Shown here in pieces: positions 16,681 to 62,084 of a DNA stretch of 64,000 bases. The notes under the pieces were generated by a model, which searched no databases, had not been told where the DNA came from, and saw nothing but the letters and a program-made list of their open reading frames with translations. Origin of the DNA: Blastocatellia bacterium (GTDB taxonomy: Bacteria; Acidobacteriota; Blastocatellia; UBA7656); assembly GCA_963728545.1 (NCBI GenBank), contig CAVSKO010000002.1, positions 2,924,477 to 2,988,476 on the forward strand, read 5' to 3'. The stretch's first letter is position 1. Each line of letters opens with the position of its first letter. The translations under genes and the position numbers were made by a program.

Positions 16681-16874
16681 CGCTGTTTCTCCTCCACTAA
16701 TATTTTCCGACCCGCCTTTCGACTCATTCGCGGATCGTGTGGTGAAGGTACTTCAACAACGATTCTGCGTCACCGCTTACGCAAGTAGGGATTTGAGGGA
16801 GAGGAGCGATCAATGTCCATTTCTTACTTCTGATCTATTCTGATCTATTTAGAGGTCGTATGAAAAGAATTATA

Positions 16875-17069
16875 AAAGCCCCGAAGGGGCGAAATTCAAC
16901 AGCCTGGGGCGCTAGCCCCAGGTCAGCGCCAAACATAACGGCAAGCCCTGTAAGGGCGAAATAGGTTTGATTGATCAACGTTATTTCGCCCTTACAGGGC
17001 TTGTTGATGTAGGCGCGCGCTACCCGGCACGCGGCAGCCGGGCTATTGAATTTCGCCCCTTCGGGGCTT
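16875..17069. mobile_element. Family B MITE-like element, copy 1, with about 30-bp terminal inverted repeats
   Basis: AAAGCCCCGAAGGGGCGAAATTCAACAGCC … GGCTATTGAATTTCGCCCCTTCGGGGCTT. Internal nested hairpins. Intergenic. Confidence 0.7.
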
Positions 17070-17107
17070 ATTGAAGTTATCCCCTTCGGTGATTTTCAAG
17101 ACGCGCT

Positions 17108-29643: not shown

Positions 29644-29679
29644 ACGTTTCTAAGTCCTGAGTGCTGAAAGGGTGTCTGA

Positions 29680-29868
29680 AAAGCCTCGAAGAGGCGAAAT
29701 TCATTAGCCTGGGGCGCTAGCCCCAGGTCAACGCCGGACAAAATGACAAGCCCTGAGAGGGCGAAATAACCCGAACGATTTATTTCGCCCTCTCAGGGCT
29801 TGTTCTCTTCTGCATGCGTTACCCGGCGCGCGGCAGCCGGGCTATTGAATTTCGCCTCTTCGAGGCTT
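29680..29868. mobile_element. Family B MITE-like element, copy 2
   Basis: AAAGCCTCGAAGAGGCGAAATTCATTAGCC … GGCTATTGAATTTCGCCTCTTCGAGGCTTT. Flanked by the direct repeat TAAGTCCTGAGTG (29651-29663 and 29898-29910). Confidence 0.7.
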
Positions 29869-29940
29869 TTGAACTACCTTTTCAGACATCCGCTGAGTCA
29901 TAAGTCCTGAGTGAGAGACAAAGCAGCGTGCTGATGTTTT

Positions 29941-33404: not shown

Positions 33405-33462
33405 GGGCTCTGCACAAAAACAGAATGCTCAAGTTTGTTAATTCAAGTTTCCAGTAATGAAG

Positions 33463-33650
33463 AGTCCCGGAGGGACTCAGGGATATTAGCCGGTGGTGTA
33501 ACCACCGGATTGTGCGGGCACACGATCTCGCGCCCTGGAAGGGCGCAGGATCAAATCACTGTCCTGCGCCCTTCCAGGGCGCGGTTTATTTGGGTAACCA
33601 GTTCCGGTGGTTGCACCACCGGCTAATATCTTTTGCGCCTCCGGCGCAAT
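33463..33650. repeat. Family C palindromic repeat, copy 2
   Basis: ATTAGCCGGTGGTGTAACCACCGG … CCGGTGGTTGCACCACCGGCTAATATCTTTT. Confidence 0.6.
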
Positions 33651-33670
33651 TACTCAAATAGCAACTCGAA

Positions 33671-53672: not shown

Positions 53673-53730
53673 CTACGCACAAGCGTCTTTCCTGATCATA
53701 GCCAGCGCGCGCGCTTTTGTCTAAGTTTGA

Positions 53731-53920
53731 AAAGCCCCGAAGGGACGAAATTCGATAGCACAGGGCAACGCCCTGCGTTGACCACCGCAAAATCATTCAA
53801 GCCCTGAAAGGGCGAAATAAAGTTAATTAATCAAACTCATTTCGCCCTTTCAGGGCTTATTCTCTTATGCGTGCGTAACCCGGCGCGCGGCAGCCGGGCT
53901 ATTGAATTTCGCCCCTTTGG
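53731..53920. mobile_element. Family B MITE-like element, copy 3
   Basis: AAAGCCCCGAAGGGACGAAATTCGATAGCA … GGCTATTGAATTTCGCCCCTTTGG. A small GCGGCGAgaaatTCGCCGC hairpin follows. Confidence 0.7.
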
Positions 53921-56845: not shown

Positions 56846-57472
56846 CTACGCGGCGCGCGCGTGTCGCTTGAAGGCTATGACCCCGGCCAGAGAGAAAAGC
56901 ACTCCCGCGCTCGCCAGTATCCACCCGCCGGGTTCGAACGTGGATTCGGAGTTTGATTCTGTAGTCAGCTCGGCGCGCGTCGTGTTGCCCGCCAGGCTTT
57001 GGAGCGCCGCGTCTATCTCTTCGGCGCTGAGCTTGCGCGCGACGATTTGGACCGGCTTATATTTCTTACTGCCGCCCGCGACCTGAATCTTGCCGTTAGG
57101 CCCGAGACGCACAAGCGCGCTGCTCGTGTGGCCATTATAGCTTCCGGTTATCGTCACGACCCAGTGACCCTCGGAAGGCCACTGTTTATTGATCGCATAA
57201 ACGCCTTTGGACGTAGCCACCAGATCGAGTTTCACCGACTGTCGCTTGCCTGCTACCAGTCCTTCTGCGCTGGCAGTGACGTCAGCATCCGACGGCTGGC
57301 GACAGCCGTACGTTCGCACGACCATAGCTGCGTTTTGCAGCTCAGGATCAGATTCCGGAGGGGCCTGGACTTCAAGCTGAAATCCTCCCGCGAGCGCGTT
57401 AGTTCCCCAGGCCAGGACTACGATTAAAGTTAACCAGTTTGCGCCAAATTTGATGAAGGCTTTGCTAAACAT
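56846..57472 (-). CDS. Hypothetical secreted protein with a PEP-CTERM-like C-terminal sorting signal
   Basis: Signal peptide. The C-terminus FEPGGWILASAGVLFSLAGVIAFKRHARAA has an xEP motif, a hydrophobic helix and a basic tail. Confidence 0.4.
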   Translation of the reverse strand: MFSKAFIKFGANWLTLIVVLAWGTNALAGGFQLEVQAPPESDPELQNAAMVVRTYGCRQPSDADVTASAEGLVAGKRQSVKLDLVATSKGVYAINKQWPSEGHWVVTITGSYNGHTSSALVRLGPNGKIQVAGGSKKYKPVQIVARKLSAEEIDAALQSLAGNTTRAELTTESNSESTFEPGGWILASAGVLFSLAGVIAFKRHARAA

Positions 57473-57576: not shown

Positions 57577-57698
57577 AAAGCCCCAAAGGGGCGCAATTCA
57601 ATAGCCTGTGGCAACGCCACAGGTCAACATCAAACAGAACGACAAGCCCTGTAAGGGCGAAATAAGTTTGATCGATCGACTTTATTTCGCCCTTACAG
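57577..57698. mobile_element. Family B MITE-like element, copy 4, left portion, interrupted by the IS insertion
   Basis: AAAGCCCCAAAGGGGCGCAATTCAATAGCC…TTATTTCGCCCTTACAG. The element then stops, and its remainder continues at 59404. Confidence 0.65.
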
Positions 57699-59403
57699 GA
57701 GACTGCTAAAAAAGTTGGCAAGTCCCGGTCGGCGCAGTATCCTGAAAGCGACTTCTAGCAGAGGAGCGGTTCCCATGCTCAAACCAGACTACTACATCGC
57801 CCCGACCGACATCGATCTCTTGGTCTTTGCTAAACTCATCCCCGCTGATCACTATCTGCGCCAACTCAAAGCCATGATTGATTTCGACTCGCTGCGTCAT
57901 CTGGTCGCCGATTGTTACTCACCCTCGATGGGGCGCAGCGCCCAAGACCCGGTGCGCTTGCTCAAGCTCAACTTCCTCCAATTTCACTATGAGTTGTCGG
58001 ATCGCGAAGTCATCGCTGAGGCTCAGGTCAATGTCGCCTTCCGTTTCTTCCTCGACTTGGCGCTCGATAGCCCATTGCCAACGCCGCCCTTGTTGACCCA
58101 GTTTCGCACCCGCCTTGGCGTCGAGCGATTCCAAAACCTCTTTGATGAGATTCTCCGCCAAGCCCGCCACCTTGGCTTGGTCAAAGATCGCCTGCGCCTC
58201 AAAGACGCCACCCACATCATTGCTAACATTGCCGTGCCCTCGACGATTCGCCTGGTCGCTTCTAGCCGCGAGCGGTTGTTGGCGGCCGCCCAGCCCTTTG
58301 CGCCCGAAGCCGTCGTCGCGCATCAACAGCGCGCCATCGGGATTCGTCAAGCCACCGCCGATCTCAAAGACCAAGCGCGCTTGCTGCAACGCGTCGAGCA
58401 GTTGCGTGAGATCGTCGTCTGGGCCGAGCACTGGGCCGCTCCGCCAGTTGGCGAGCCAGTTGGCGAGCCAGTTGGCGAAGCCACCACCGAGTTGCGCGCG
58501 GCGCTCGACCTGGCCCACAAGATATTGGCTGATCGCCAGCCCCAAGCCCAAGATAAGCTGTTGTCGCTGGTTGACGAGCAAGCGCGCACCGGCAAACACG
58601 GCGAGTATTACAATGGCTATCTGCTGGATGTCAGCCTGGATGCCGACTCGGAGTTGATCTGCGCCATCGAGGTGCTGCCGGCCAATGGCGATGAAGCCAA
58701 GGATGCCCAGCCCTTGATTGAATCTGAAGAAGCGGCGCACGGCAATGACATCAAAAGTTTGTTGATGGACGCGATCGGCTTTCGCGGCGAGGTGTTGCGC
58801 GAGTTGGCGGTCGAGAGCGGGCCACAACTGACCGTGTATGTGCCGTCGTATGAGTGGCCGGGCTCGGTGCCCGGCTTGTTTCAACCGGGAGATTTTCAAC
58901 TCGATGAGCCCGGCGAAGCATTGCAATGTCCGGGTGGGCAAACCAGCCGCAGTCGCACGCGAACAGGACGCGATCAAGGCTGGCAATACTTTTTTCCAGC
59001 CCGCCAATGCCAAGCTTGTCGGTTGCGCACGACTTGCCTGAAAGCGGGAGCGAAAGGAGGACGAACGGTTATCAAGAACGACTACGAAGCGGAATATCAA
59101 GCGGCCAGAGCGCGCGCCACCACGGCAGCCTATCAGGAGGTGAGAAAGCAGCATCCGCGGATTGAGCGGAAGCTGGCCGAGATGATGCGCTGGCATGGCG
59201 GCAGGCGAGTGCGCTATCGCGGGCGATTGCGAGTGAAGATTCAGTATGTGCTGACCGCCGTCGTCGTCAACCTCAAGCGCATGGTCAAGCTGTTGAACCT
59301 GCCACTGAGTCACCAGCCTGCCTGAAGTGCGGGCAGCAGACCGTGCGTGGTGATGATGAGGTGTATCGTGCTTCATTTCAACTCGGACTTTTTTAGCAGT
59401 CTC
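57699..59403 (+). mobile_element. Insertion sequence, IS5/IS1182-superfamily type, 1705 bp with 17-bp perfect terminal inverted repeats and a 5-bp target duplication
   Basis: IRL GAGACTGCTAAAAAAGT (57699-57715). IRR ACTTTTTTAGCAGTCTC (59387-59403). TACAG direct repeats at 57694-57698 and 59404-59408. A single transposase ORF. Confidence 0.8.
57775..59325 (+). CDS. IS5/IS1182-family DDE transposase with an InsH-type N-terminal domain
   Basis: …VRLLKLNFLQFHYELSDREVIAEAQVNVAFRFFLDL…LLTQFRTRLG… is an InsH_N-type domain. C-terminal DDE region. The ATG at 57775 is preceded by GAGGAG. The upstream TTG at 57715 is less likely to be the start. Confidence 0.8.
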   Translation: MLKPDYYIAPTDIDLLVFAKLIPADHYLRQLKAMIDFDSLRHLVADCYSPSMGRSAQDPVRLLKLNFLQFHYELSDREVIAEAQVNVAFRFFLDLALDSPLPTPPLLTQFRTRLGVERFQNLFDEILRQARHLGLVKDRLRLKDATHIIANIAVPSTIRLVASSRERLLAAAQPFAPEAVVAHQQRAIGIRQATADLKDQARLLQRVEQLREIVVWAEHWAAPPVGEPVGEPVGEATTELRAALDLAHKILADRQPQAQDKLLSLVDEQARTGKHGEYYNGYLLDVSLDADSELICAIEVLPANGDEAKDAQPLIESEEAAHGNDIKSLLMDAIGFRGEVLRELAVESGPQLTVYVPSYEWPGSVPGLFQPGDFQLDEPGEALQCPGGQTSRSRTRTGRDQGWQYFFPARQCQACRLRTTCLKAGAKGGRTVIKNDYEAEYQAARARATTAAYQEVRKQHPRIERKLAEMMRWHGGRRVRYRGRLRVKIQYVLTAVVVNLKRMVKLLNLPLSHQPA

Positions 59404-59480
59404 TACAGGGCTTGTCTGTTGTGTCTGCCAGAACCCGGCGCGATGCGCCGGGCTATTGAATTGCGCCCCTTTGGGGCTTT
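59404..59480. mobile_element. Family B MITE-like element, copy 4, right portion
   Basis: TACAGGGCTTGTCTGTT…GGCTATTGAATTGCGCCCCTTTGGGGCTTT. It resumes the MITE sequence exactly after the IS. Confidence 0.65.
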
Positions 59481-59504: not shown

Positions 59505-62084
59505 TTAGCGCGAGCGGACGGCTACGACCGTGATGTCATCTTCCTGCTCGCGACCGCTGAATTGTATGACTTCGGCGACTACGTCTTCGTGCAGCGACAC
59601 AACGGTCTGGCACCGTTTCGACTGCAAGGCTTCGATCAAACGCGCTTCGCCGTACTCTTCTCCGTCATCGCTCGTAGCTTCCGTGACGCCGTCGGAAAAA
59701 GCTACGAGCGTGTCGCCGGGCTCAAGCGTGACTTCGCCCGTCTCACAGCCCCAGCGGTCAAACAATCCCAGCACCATCGCCGTCGCTTCTAACCTTTGGA
59801 CCTCGCCCGTCACGCGAACCAGCAGCGGAGGGTTGTGCCCGCAGTTGACGTAGCGCAATCTTCGGGTGTCATCCTCATAAGTGGCAAAAAACAATGTCGC
59901 GAAATGTTCGGGTGCGGTTGATTCATAAAACAGATGATTTACAGTGCACAGCAGTCTTGACAAATCTTCAATCGCCAGCGCGTACTGGCTGCGAAGGTTG
60001 GCTTGAAGGTTAGCCATTAACAGAGCGGCGCTGATTCCCTTCCCCGAAATGTCTGCCAGAACAATCGCGAGGCGGCCTGGACCGAGGTCTAGAAAATCAT
60101 AATAGTCGCCCCCGACCGCTCGCGCCTGTATGCAGCCGCCCACGTATTCGAGCGTCTCAAGCGGCGGCATCTTTTGAGGAAAGAGTTTAGTTTGAACCTG
60201 GCGGGCTATCTCCATCTCGCGAGAGGCGCGGCGCTCGGCTTCTATGCGGTCGGCCATCTGCTCGGCCAGGCGTCTGCTCTCAATCGCTATGCCGACTTGA
60301 GCGGCAACCGTGGCGAGCAGCCGCTTGTCTTCGCCCGAATATGGTTCTTCCGACATCCGCGCGCCGAGCGCAATCAATCCGACGAGCCGGCCTTCGCGCC
60401 CCATCACAGGGACCAGGCATTCGGCCTCCATCGGCGCAAGCTCGCTCAATTGCGCGCGCCCCTCATCTCCCGCAGAAACGTCCCACGGCTCGCCGCGCTC
60501 GGTGAGCCGCGCGAGCACCGAGAGTCGAGAGGAGATGGTTTCCGGCCCTTGCGCCTGTTGCCCGCCTGCTACTCGGAGGTTGTCGTCGGCGCTTTCAAGG
60601 TAGATGGTTATCGAATCGGGATGAAGCGCTTCATTCAGATGGCGCGCAAGCAGCGAAGCAAGTTCCGCGCGGTCTACGGTCGTGCGCGCCTTCGCGGCCA
60701 GGTCTTCGAGTATGTGGCGCGCGTCGTAAGCGCTTCGGAAAAAGGCGCGGTCGATCCTCTCGGTGATGCGGCGTTCGGCCTGCGCCACGAGCCAGGCCAG
60801 AAGCATTCCAAACCCCACGCCGAAGGCGATGCCTGCCGCCCGCGATTCGGAATCGGGCCGCACGAAACTAGAGAATATGTTTATGAAGAGAAAGGTCGCG
60901 CCTGCGCTCAATAAAAAGATGAACAACACGAAGCCGCGCTGGACCATCAGGTAGCGCGCGCTTCTTTTGAGCAGCACAGGAATCTCCATGACCCTGTGCT
61001 TGACCACCACGTAGGCGAACGAGGAAGGAAAAAGCAGAAAGAGTATCACCGGAAGGATGAAGGCGGGCGAAAAATAAAACCCCGCTATGAACCTCGACGC
61101 AGGCCCCCAGTAGTAGGACATCAAAACGAGCGCGCCTAACCAGCCGACGACCGACCCGGCGACCAGCACGCGCACCCTCCGTTTTTCGCCCGCGTCTTCC
61201 AGGCGGCGATAATTTACGATCAATGCCGCAAGCCCCGCGACGACGTAAAGCGGCGGCAGGTAATTCGTGGCCGATAAAAACCAGTCCAGCTCCGCCGGAA
61301 CAAGCTCGGGCCGATAGATCATCGAGTAATAATACTCGGCGCGCGAAGGCAGGCTCAGCGCCACAGGCAGCCACACCAAAAGCCATACCCAGCGCGCGTG
61401 AAACAGTCTTCGAGGAAAGATAGCAAAGAAGGTGAAAAGCAGCGGCGCGAATACTGTTGTGCTAAAAAGCGGTATCCACAAAAGCGCGCCCAAAAGCGAC
61501 GGCAGCTCTCGCCAGGTCGCGGCCATGCCGTAAGGCAATAGAAACGACATCGTCGCTACGGTTGCCAAAAACCAGCCGCCCACGCGGTTTATCAACTCAT
61601 ACGGGCGGCTGAAAGCGATTACGATTGCAAGTATCAAAGTGATGAGCTGCGCGAGCCTGACCATCAGCAAGACCATGCCTTCTCTCGAAGTCCAATCGCT
61701 CCACGAGCTTTGCATCAAGGTCAGCTCGGTTTCAAACTCGCGGCCGCCGCGCTCTATCGTGAGCGGGACCGGGCGGCCTGCTTCGAGGTTGACGCGCACT
61801 ATCGTCCAATCAGGGAGCGTTTTGATTATGCGCCCGTCAGCCGACACCACTCGGTCGCCCGGTTCGAGTCCGGCGCGCGCGGCGGGCGAATCGGGCAAGA
61901 TCATGCGCACGGTCTTCTGTTCGTTGTTGAACTCCGTCAGCATCCCCGTCATCTGCGGCCCGAGGAAATCCGAGTAGACGAGCAAAATAAAATAGGCCAG
62001 GAATGAAGCCGCGACCACGTACATCCACCAGGGCGCGCGGCGGCGTGACACAGGTTGCTCGGAAGAATGCGTATCGTCAGTCAT
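59505..62084 (-). CDS. Membrane-bound PP2C-family (SpoIIE/RsbU-like) Ser/Thr phosphatase with N-terminal PDZ, a multi-TM region and a GAF domain
   Basis: PDZ (…ILPDSPAARAGLEPGDRVVSADGRII…), about 9 TM helices, a GAF-like segment, and a PP2C_SIG domain (…GGDYYDFLDLGPGRLAIVLADISGKGISAALLMA…FSDGVTEA…). Confidence 0.8.
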   Translation of the reverse strand: MTDDTHSSEQPVSRRRAPWWMYVVAASFLAYFILLVYSDFLGPQMTGMLTEFNNEQKTVRMILPDSPAARAGLEPGDRVVSADGRIIKTLPDWTIVRVNLEAGRPVPLTIERGGREFETELTLMQSSWSDWTSREGMVLLMVRLAQLITLILAIVIAFSRPYELINRVGGWFLATVATMSFLLPYGMAATWRELPSLLGALLWIPLFSTTVFAPLLFTFFAIFPRRLFHARWVWLLVWLPVALSLPSRAEYYYSMIYRPELVPAELDWFLSATNYLPPLYVVAGLAALIVNYRRLEDAGEKRRVRVLVAGSVVGWLGALVLMSYYWGPASRFIAGFYFSPAFILPVILFLLFPSSFAYVVVKHRVMEIPVLLKRSARYLMVQRGFVLFIFLLSAGATFLFINIFSSFVRPDSESRAAGIAFGVGFGMLLAWLVAQAERRITERIDRAFFRSAYDARHILEDLAAKARTTVDRAELASLLARHLNEALHPDSITIYLESADDNLRVAGGQQAQGPETISSRLSVLARLTERGEPWDVSAGDEGRAQLSELAPMEAECLVPVMGREGRLVGLIALGARMSEEPYSGEDKRLLATVAAQVGIAIESRRLAEQMADRIEAERRASREMEIARQVQTKLFPQKMPPLETLEYVGGCIQARAVGGDYYDFLDLGPGRLAIVLADISGKGISAALLMANLQANLRSQYALAIEDLSRLLCTVNHLFYESTAPEHFATLFFATYEDDTRRLRYVNCGHNPPLLVRVTGEVQRLEATAMVLGLFDRWGCETGEVTLEPGDTLVAFSDGVTEATSDDGEEYGEARLIEALQSKRCQTVVSLHEDVVAEVIQFSGREQEDDITVVAVRSR

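Follow-up and report, generated by a model that had tools for sequence, protein, structure and literature searches.

The window analyzed here, a 64,000-nucleotide stretch of a Blastocatellia (Acidobacteriota) genome, contains an insertion sequence (IS) lodged within one copy of a short palindromic repeat, in the interval between a gene for a SpoIIE/PP2C-type phosphatase and a small downstream gene. Coordinates are collected in Table 1. A preliminary description of this DNA had proposed that the copy, designated copy 4 of a "family B MITE", was split after 122 bp at position 57698 and resumed at 59404; alignment with intact copies confirmed both points. The left 122 bp carry the left terminal repeat and a central hairpin that is complete in its left arm and its loop and nearly so in its right arm, and the right 72 bp carry the outer end of the right hairpin arm and the right terminal repeat.

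Table 1. Features of the interrupted repeat and of the IS inserted in it (window coordinates)
Feature	Position	Strand	Basis or detail
Left part of interrupted repeat, 122 bp	57577-57698	none	aligned with three intact copies
Rfam RF01687 Acido-Lenti-1 match	57579-57623	-	40.5 bits; gathering score 37
Left TACAG, 5-bp target-site duplication	57694-57698	none	direct reading; alignment with intact copies
IS element, 1705 bp	57699-59403		direct reading and repeat finder agree
Left terminal inverted repeat (IRL), GAGACTGCTAAAAAAGT	57699-57715	+	17/17 complementary to IRR (repeat finder)
Promoter-like TTGGCA, 17 nt, TATCCT	57715-57743	+	consensus scan
Shine-Dalgarno-like GAGGAG	57761-57766	+	8 nt 5' of ATG; conserved in relatives
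Transposase gene, 516 aa plus stop	57775-59325	+	ORF list; Pfam and NCBIfam matches
In-frame 12-bp tandem repeat, GCCAGTTGGCGA, 3.3 copies	58443-58483	+	encodes PVGE-PVGE-PVGE (repeat finder)
Candidate catalytic D289	58639-58641	+	motif position
Candidate catalytic D332	58768-58770	+	motif position
Candidate catalytic E464	59164-59166	+	motif position
Right terminal inverted repeat (IRR), ACTTTTTTAGCAGTCTC	59387-59403	+	repeat finder, same pair as IRL
Right TACAG, 5-bp target-site duplication	59404-59408	none	direct reading; alignment with intact copies
Right part of interrupted repeat, 72 bp	59409-59480	none	aligned with intact copies
Rfam RF01687 Acido-Lenti-1 match	59434-59478	+	43.5 bits; gathering score 37

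The host repeat is short, non-coding, multi-copy and bounded by terminal inverted repeats, and is in these respects a MITE. Four copies of ~195-205 bp, 72-82% identical by blastn, occur in the window, the intact ones at ~16871-17074, 29678-29875 and 53729-53920, with a weaker match near 33458-33651. The terminal repeat identified by the repeat finder spans 49 nt with 86% complementarity, and folding of the reconstructed repeat predicts a single long hairpin (-86.9 kcal/mol; z = -19). The core ends of the copies showed no consistent target-site duplication; one copy lies some way inside a pair of 13-bp direct repeats. No parent element of the repeat was identified, and its ends are unrelated to those of the IS in the window. 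Five matches to the Acido-Lenti-1 model, listed in Rfam as a candidate small RNA, were retrieved (39.5-52.7 bits; gathering score 37), every one located at repeat termini and facing outward.

Inspection of the junctions defined the insertion to the base. The terminal inverted repeats, previously described as 17 bp long and perfect, proved so by direct reading as well as by the repeat finder; in relatives, the left repeat is conserved as GAGAYYGCTWAAAAAGT. Since TACAG occurs once in the intact repeat copy at 16871, which reads uninterrupted as CCCTTACAGGGCTTGT, the added DNA is accounted for exactly by the 1705 bp of the IS and a single duplication of 5 bp, as had been claimed. Within the window the duplication could formally be 5 or 6 bp, because a G comes after TACAG at both junctions; the site of a relative, L096 (CCCGG-IS-CCCGGC), sets its length at 5 bp and the start of the element at GAGA. 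A 5-bp junction match is expected by chance at ~1 in 1000, and no base was deleted in forming this one. The simple insertion model originally offered is further borne out by the remaining repeat copies in the window, all of which lack the interrupting sequence, by the dissimilarity of IS and repeat ends, and by the recurrence of 5-bp duplications at insertion sites of close relatives. We hold the identity of the element and this model of its insertion with high confidence.

Relatives of the element were sought in other sequence collections. A scan of species-representative genomes with the transposase retrieved no relative, indicating absence there at the sensitivity used, and an exact search of JGI metagenomes for both IS ends gave zero matches. 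A degenerate left-end pattern retrieved 79 loci from JGI metagenomes, including chance matches (L037, L038, L052, L061, L072, L075, L080). Some contigs bearing relatives are chimeric across copies, as shown by L020 and L023, which have the same left flank and different right flanks; the multi-sample contigs of the relative P0073, partly chimeric, were left out of the duplication evidence. A 5-bp duplication was present at 8 of 36 distinct relatives' sites, compared with 10 of 1252 mismatched flank pairs, and the other 28 sites are without one. Many relatives are located at the center of inverted repeats. Complementarity was higher between flanks truly paired across an element than between mismatched ones (Mann-Whitney p = 9e-4), five of the 36 sites falling under the 1st percentile of the control. 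The immediate flanks of the window copy pair weakly with each other (-9.5 kcal/mol).

Two individual relatives bear directly on the host repeat. L053, a metagenomic IS 79% identical to that of the window and carried on an unrelated contig, is inserted in a member of the same repeat family, and its right junction falls on the homologous nucleotide; it is the sole case of association with the Acido-Lenti-1 repeat found across the clade. L001, a Logan read-assembly contig of the same IS, has a right flank (CTGTAAGGGCGAA) that corresponds to the mirror-image arm of the same hairpin and is the reverse complement of the left flank in the window. From these data, comprising short metagenome contigs and one Logan contig with ends shaped by the assembly graph, we are inclined to favor a preference of this IS1182 clade for G+C-rich hairpin or palindromic targets, which would account for the position of the window IS in the hairpin of the repeat. 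The competing view, that the element landed by chance, with no preference for hairpin or site and with intergenic repeats simply tolerated as targets, appears rather unlikely. It would fit the single IS copy in the window, the same CCCTTACAGGGC site left unoccupied in the other window copies of the repeat, and the selective neutrality of insertions in intergenic repeats, which are thus preferentially retained; it is countered by the shared junction of L053, the mirror-arm end of the Logan contig, the significant self-complementarity of flanks in the clade, and the documented targeting of hairpins by IS1272, a member of the same family (PMC5678879, PMC4923244). A more specific extension of the hairpin preference, doubtful as it stands, is that transposases of the clade recognize a DNA stem-loop (GCCCT-NNN-AGGGC) and not a sequence, with alternative products arising at one target; these may include the clean 5-bp duplication of the window and, in L053, mirror-image flanks left after the inner hairpin was lost, and L001 can be read as a further such product. 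The left flank of a copy having its right end at CTGTAAGGGCGAA would be informative: one ending ...GCCCTGTA would mean simple insertion in the mirror arm, and one ending ...CGCCCTTACAG would mean that the whole inner hairpin had been duplicated in a structure-dependent insertion.

The IS encodes one transposase, and its 516-aa ORF is free of internal stops, as initially reported. The ATG start is backed by the GAGGAG sequence and by a start, ATG-CTC-AAA, conserved among relatives; on the same grounds it was favored over an upstream TTG at 57715. The first base of TTGGCA is the last base of IRL, and the arrangement TTGGCA-N17-TAnnnT recurs at the same position in the left ends of ~50 distinct relatives; TTGGCA/TATCCT is likely to be the transposase promoter, overlapping the left end, as judged from this pattern. 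Residues D285, D289, D291, D332 and E464 are each at least 97% conserved in an alignment of 121 proteins, as are cysteines C385, C412, C415 and C421, and a cysteine-bearing segment of ~130 residues separates the second D from the E. We infer D289, D332 and E464 as the candidate catalytic triad from their positions in the motif; a search for a solved structure of a homologue found none. The 12-bp tandem repeat noted earlier inside the gene was recovered with the same period (12) and falls in a region that is poorly conserved in the protein alignment and varies in length between relatives. It represents an in-frame length polymorphism, prone to slippage, in a linker that tolerates such change, and not a functional module. 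A 485-aa ORF on the minus strand (57919-59376) had zero family matches and was taken as a G+C-driven artefact, and matches within the IS to the Rfam models SorX and mir-2032 were set aside with scores far under their gathering scores.

Comparison of alleles bears on the age and mobility of the element. Proteins encoded in the window map to one contig of 5,699,685 bp that also encodes two 512-aa alleles, P0001 and P0121, so that the source genome holds at least three transposase alleles. P0001, P0121 and L001 each have one 12-bp unit fewer than the window copy, the only one seen with three repeat units. An in-frame repeat unit is the sole difference between the window transposase and P0121, and two substitutions and one 12-bp unit separate L001 from the window IS; from the latter comparison it follows that the element is recent and that repeat number varies among copies. 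The earlier judgment that the copy was recent and probably active gains support from the perfect inverted repeats, the conserved residues, the near-identical L001 and the number of alleles, and we consider the window copy to be young and probably still mobile, on the strength of these sequence features. That it is instead an immobile fossil of intact appearance, inactivated for example by the extra PVGE unit or by a regulatory defect, is improbable. Its distinctive three-unit allele is what such a view can draw on, against which stand the near-identity with P0121, the variability, across 120 relatives, in both length and sequence of the stretch holding the repeat, the perfect inverted repeats and undecayed target duplication, and the retention of all the conserved residues.

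The label "IS5/IS1182-type" previously given to the element holds in its second part and fails in its first. The transposase matched the NCBIfam model NF033551 (transpos_IS1182) essentially from end to end, over residues 17-506 of 516, with 298.1 bits against a cut-off of 270; two IS5 models fell short, NF033578 at 95 bits (cut-off 275) and NF033581 at 77.9 bits (cut-off 140). Passing the former and failing the latter, the element belongs to the IS1182 family and not to IS5. Pfam domains above gathering scores were DUF772 (PF05598; residues 53-126), DDE_Tnp_1 (PF01609; 268-500) and DDE_Tnp_1_6 (PF13751; 385-504), and their order, with DUF772 at the N-terminus and then a DDE domain ending in DDE_Tnp_1_6, is the IS1182 architecture. 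Elements of this family are ~1.3-2 kb in length (ISfinder sizes), with a single ORF and short terminal inverted repeats, a layout matched here by the single ORF, the overall length and the fully complementary ends. Their target duplications are short, variable or absent, and some members use palindromic targets, a range that accommodates the 5-bp duplication of the window and relatives that show either such a duplication or a location at an inverted-repeat center. The best plasmid matches are all annotated as IS1182 family transposases, with identities of at most 30%; the staphylococcal ones among plasmid matches, so annotated, share ~23% identity across 72% of the protein. Beyond the source genome, the closest proteins come from metagenomes, at 72% identity. 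Assignment to IS5 proper is very improbable: the N-terminal DUF772 (InsH N-terminal) and the DDE_Tnp_1 catalytic fold family are indeed common to IS5 elements and the window protein, and the IS5 models do match weakly, but the scores of these curated models lie far under cut-off while the IS1182 model passes, and the long insert with cysteines that separates the second D from the E, the DDE_Tnp_1_6 C-terminus and the uniform annotation of plasmid relatives likewise separate the two. The element is an ordinary new member of the known IS1182 family hosted by Blastocatellia, and to our knowledge it probably has no ISfinder name as yet.

Comparative evidence also places the two insertions in order. 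In two related Blastocatellia metagenome-assembled genomes (L002, L003), in which orthologues of the flanking phosphatase have 83% amino acid identity, the orthologous genes adjoin with neither repeat nor IS between them, and the insertions are therefore nested; because these are different species, the presence/absence polymorphism of the repeat is suggestive and not strict. The repeat inserted first, between the two flanking genes, and the IS then transposed into the 3' arm of its central hairpin. Standard DDE chemistry predicts that the transposase cut with a 5-bp stagger around TACAG, within the small stem-loop GCCCT-TAC-AGGGC, and that repair of the resulting gaps produced the duplication. 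MITEs are often derived from full-length ISs, and the repeat could on that precedent be a deletion derivative of the IS, or the IS native to a longer parent with the interruption ancestral, but this has effectively been refuted: the repeat termini (AAAAGCCCCGAAGGGGCGAAATTCAATAGCC...) have nothing in common with the IS termini (GAGACTGCTAAAAAAGT), the IS sits asymmetrically in one arm of the hairpin with a 5-bp direct repeat on either side, three further copies in the window are uninterrupted, and relatives of the IS are surrounded by many unrelated flanking sequences. Taken as a whole, the locus is very likely explained by a complete, young IS1182 element inserted in the hairpin of the repeat; its membership of a hairpin-preferring clade is the less certain part.

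In adding a new, apparently live IS1182-family element from an under-studied phylum, these results are routine annotation of a mobile element. The insertion is nevertheless defined with base-exact precision, the empty site being known from sister copies, and the relative at the same position, the mirror-arm junction and the complementary flanks of the clade together point to targeting directed by hairpins, an idea open to experimental test. Such a preference would be a modestly interesting aspect of an otherwise ordinary family member.

Comparison with described systems places the element further. It shares with IS1182 elements defined by NF033551 the full-length model match, domain order, single ORF, ~1.7 kb size and short inverted repeats, and differs from annotated plasmid-borne members in its low sequence identity and its acidobacterial host. 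ISPse1 of Paracoccus seriniphilus, also of the IS1182 family, is 1653 bp long, has inverted repeats that match perfectly (16/16) and makes a duplication of 4 bp; it is functional and was captured in a trap plasmid (PMC3281130); by described layout it resembles the window element in size, perfection of ends and short duplication, the duplication being 4 bp in the one and 5 bp in the other, and its mobility is proven. Concerning the host repeat, both termini match the 46-nt two-hairpin model of the Acido-Lenti-1 RNA motif (RF01687; Weinberg et al. 2010, PMC2864571) in outward-facing orientation, but here the motif makes up the terminal inverted repeat of a palindromic element of ~200 bp, present in several copies and missing at the orthologous locus of related species. 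This arrangement bears on the question of whether Acido-Lenti-1 is a gene for an RNA or marks the terminus of a mobile repeat. The closest parallel in targeting is IS1272 of staphylococci, the best-studied member of the family, which, with its derivative TnSha1, inserts at hairpin or inverted-repeat targets in both orientations and with little primary-sequence specificity, leaving zero target duplication and deleting part or all of the hairpin (PMC5678879, PMC4923244). Relatives of the window IS resemble it in often occupying inverted-repeat centers without duplication, as does L053 in lacking the inner part of the hairpin, whereas the window copy shows a clean 5-bp duplication with nothing deleted. 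Should recognition of the stem-loop prove correct, this IS and its Acido-Lenti-1-ended repeat would provide a natural test system for the "structure-dependent / stem-loop-replacing" model proposed for IS1272.

The element inserted in copy 4 of the host repeat (family B MITE) is bounded by a perfect 17-nt inverted pair, located by a repeat finder (GAGACTGCTAAAAAAGT at the left end, ACTTTTTTAGCAGTCTC at the right), that encloses 1705 bp, and TACAG abuts it on both sides. Its outer flanks together constitute one copy of a multi-copy repeat, and the copy at 16871 runs uninterrupted through the insertion point (CCCTTACAGGGCTTGT); the extra DNA in copy 4 therefore amounts to 1705 bp plus one 5-bp duplication, with zero loss. 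Because a G follows TACAG on both sides, the window copy alone leaves the duplication at 5 or 6 bp; the junctions of a relative on external contig L096, CCCGG before the element and CCCGGC after it, settle the matter, indicating that the duplication is 5 bp and that the element begins at GAGA. The single ORF encodes 516 aa free of internal stops and carries 3.3 copies of the 12-bp unit GCCAGTTGGCGA. The preliminary description, which had reported perfect 17-bp termini, an addition of 1705 bp with a duplicated TACAG, one uninterrupted 516-aa ORF and a tandem 12-bp repeat within it, is thus borne out in its anatomy.

Coordinates of the insertion, its host repeat and neighboring features (window positions unless residues are stated)
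Feature	Position	Strand
Inverted repeats, left / right	57699-57715 / 59387-59403	
TACAG, left / right	57694-57698 / 59404-59408	
Host-repeat flanks (copy 4)	57577-57698, 59409-59480	
Other host-repeat copies (three)	~16871-17074, 29678-29875, 53729-53920	
Weaker match to host-repeat family	33458-33651	both
Central hairpin, copy 4	57641-57699 with 59404-59416	
Outermost hairpin, copy 4	57580-57592	minus
Outermost hairpin, copy 4	59465-59477	plus
13-bp direct repeat	29651-29663, 29901-29913	
RF01687 matches	57579-57623, 16877-16922, 29682-29727	minus
RF01687 matches	59434-59478, 17023-17068	plus
Transposase ORF	57775-59325	
12-bp tandem repeat	58443-58483	
Pfam DUF772	transposase residues 53-126	
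Pfam DDE_Tnp_1	transposase residues 268-500	
Pfam DDE_Tnp_1_6	transposase residues 385-504	
859-aa protein, PDZ + GAF + SpoIIE/PP2C phosphatase domains	59505-62084	minus
208-aa protein, no family match	56846-57472	minus

The organism is assigned by genes near the insertion to the Blastocatellia (Acidobacteriota). In two related Blastocatellia MAGs (L002, L003), whose phosphatase orthologs are 83% identical in amino acid sequence to the window protein, the orthologous flanking genes are adjacent, with neither repeat nor IS between them. The absence of both from this locus implies a nested history in which the repeat arrived first and the IS entered it later.

The transposase passes the NCBI curated IS1182 equivalog over residues 17 to 506 (298 bits against a cut-off of 270) and fails both curated IS5 models (95 against 275 and 78 against 140 bits), which places it in the IS1182 family; of the earlier label "IS5/IS1182-type" only the second half is retained. 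Its best plasmid matches, all annotated as IS1182 family transposases, reach at most 30% identity, and a sequence search for homologues of solved structure detected none. When the protein was aligned with 120 relatives (59-99% identity), D285, D289, D291, D332 and E464 and four cysteines (C385, C412, C415, C421) proved conserved in at least 97% of sequences; from their position in the usual motifs, D289, D332 and E464 are the candidate catalytic triad. The layout of the left end, comprising the left inverted repeat, TTGGCA (beginning at the final base of that repeat), 17 nt, TAnnnT, GAGGAG, 8-9 nt and ATG-CTC-AAA, is kept in about 50 distinct relatives. This conservation supports a translational start at ATG 57775, not at the upstream TTG 57715, and suggests that the predicted promoter lies partly inside the inverted repeat.

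The source genome contains two further transposase alleles, both of 512 aa: P0121 is the window protein less one PVGE unit, and P0001 has L330S as well. An IS copy on a Logan read-assembly contig (L001) differs from that in the window by one 12-bp unit and two substitutions (58572, 58763). Together these point to at least three near-identical copies in the genome, among which only the one in the window carries three units of the repeat. The 12-bp repeat falls in a stretch of the alignment where almost all relatives differ in both length and sequence, and in-frame slippage polymorphism is the simplest reading of its variation.

Reconstructed without the IS, the host repeat folds as a single long hairpin (-86.9 kcal/mol, z = -19), whose central stem holds the IS in its 3' arm. 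Paired changes (GTAA/TTAC, GAGA/TCTC, GAAA/TTTC) preserve pairing in this central hairpin between copy 4 and the equivalent columns of copies 16871, 29678 and 53729, which suggests selection on structure, whether of DNA or RNA, and not on sequence. The outermost hairpin of each end (GCCCCTTTGGGGC then TTTT) scores as intrinsic-terminator-like, pointing outward on its strand; an intact copy could act as a two-way terminator, and in copy 4 the two halves are now 1.7 kb apart owing to the IS. Copy 29678 is flanked at about 25 bp on each side by a 13-bp direct repeat (TAAGTCCTGAGTG) enclosing 237 bp. A similar length, about 240 bp, is what copy 4 adds to the locus as it stands in the related MAGs, made up of the core and a further 22-23 bp per side; the unit that moves may extend beyond the conserved core. 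One further region matches the family more weakly (nhmmer E = 1e-7 and 6.5e-5 on the two strands).

Both termini of the host repeat, a palindromic element of some 200 bp, match Acido-Lenti-1, filed in Rfam as a candidate small RNA (RF01687), at 39.5-52.7 bits against a gathering score of 37, always facing outward. The original seed alignment likewise contains clustered, outward-facing pairs (e.g. wf3_AHAI13594_y1 575-530 and 682-727), and the element with these ends is missing from the orthologous locus in related species. Here Acido-Lenti-1 behaves as the inverted-repeat end of a multi-copy element, a side observation that may merit separate attention.

The duplicated TACAG lies within a small stem-loop, GCCCT-TAC-AGGGC, where it takes in the loop plus two bases of the stem. 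By general DDE transposase chemistry, the transposase would bind the 17-bp ends, the 3'-OH ends would attack the target 5 bp apart, and gap filling by host repair would yield the TACAG repeat. Among 36 distinct insertion sites of the clade assembled from public contigs, eight have an exact 5-bp duplication (CCTGG, ACGGG, CTCGG, CCCGG, CCGGG or TACAG; three contigs whose flanks closely resemble one another share CTCGG), compared with 10 of 1252 mismatched flank pairs. Pairing between left and right flanks is also stronger in real than in mismatched pairs (Mann-Whitney p = 9e-4), and for five of the 36 sites it lies under the 1st percentile of the mismatched control. Several relatives (L030, L058, L060, L068, L101) occupy the center of imperfect inverted repeats, without duplication. 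One relative of the 62% class shares a single right flank between two configurations: in three metagenomes (L078, L109, L111) the left flank is unrelated and a 5-bp CTCGG duplication is present, whereas in L060 (275-2072) the left side repeats the right flank as an imperfect inverted copy of 50 nt and the duplication is absent, an arrangement that may reflect insertion at the center of a palindromic element. A P0107-type relative of 1709 bp is found repeatedly in a CCACGGGGGWCACGGGGATCACGGGG repeat (L033, L034, L035, L036), in opposite orientations in L034 and L035 with a 5-bp ACGGG/CCCGT duplication.

The most telling case for target choice is metagenome contig L053, in which a 79%-identical IS of 1693 bp lies between the halves of a member of the host-repeat family, one end of which passes the Acido-Lenti-1 model. 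Its right junction, IS followed by TTCAGGGCTTGT, falls at the nucleotide homologous to that in the window, IS followed by TACAGGGCTTGT; its left junction, AGCCCTGAA followed by IS, is at the mirror position on the opposite hairpin arm, and the hairpin lacks its inner portion. The right flank of the L001 copy (CTGTAAGGGCGAA) is likewise the mirror arm of the window hairpin. That contig ends exactly 13 nt past the 17-nt repeat, 30 nt in total, which would equal k-1 for a Logan assembly run at k = 31; such a stop would be expected of a de Bruijn graph if the reverse-complement junction also occurs in the reads. Given this behavior, we treat the junction as real but do not take it as established that its two flanks belong together. 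These sites favor a preference of the clade for the GCCCT-TAC-AGGGC stem-loop and for hairpins in general, although other host-repeat copies in the window present an identical yet unoccupied site, which counts against it.

Specialists will not be surprised to find an intact element of a known family, IS1182, inside a repeat; the modest lead is the recurring use of one hairpin, together with sites with and without duplication within one clade. The published behavior of IS1272 is consistent with a hairpin preference (PMC5678879, PMC4923244), and IS1182-family members that make short duplications exist and are mobile, such as ISPse1 (PMC3281130), whose duplication is 4 bp whereas that of the window element is 5 bp.
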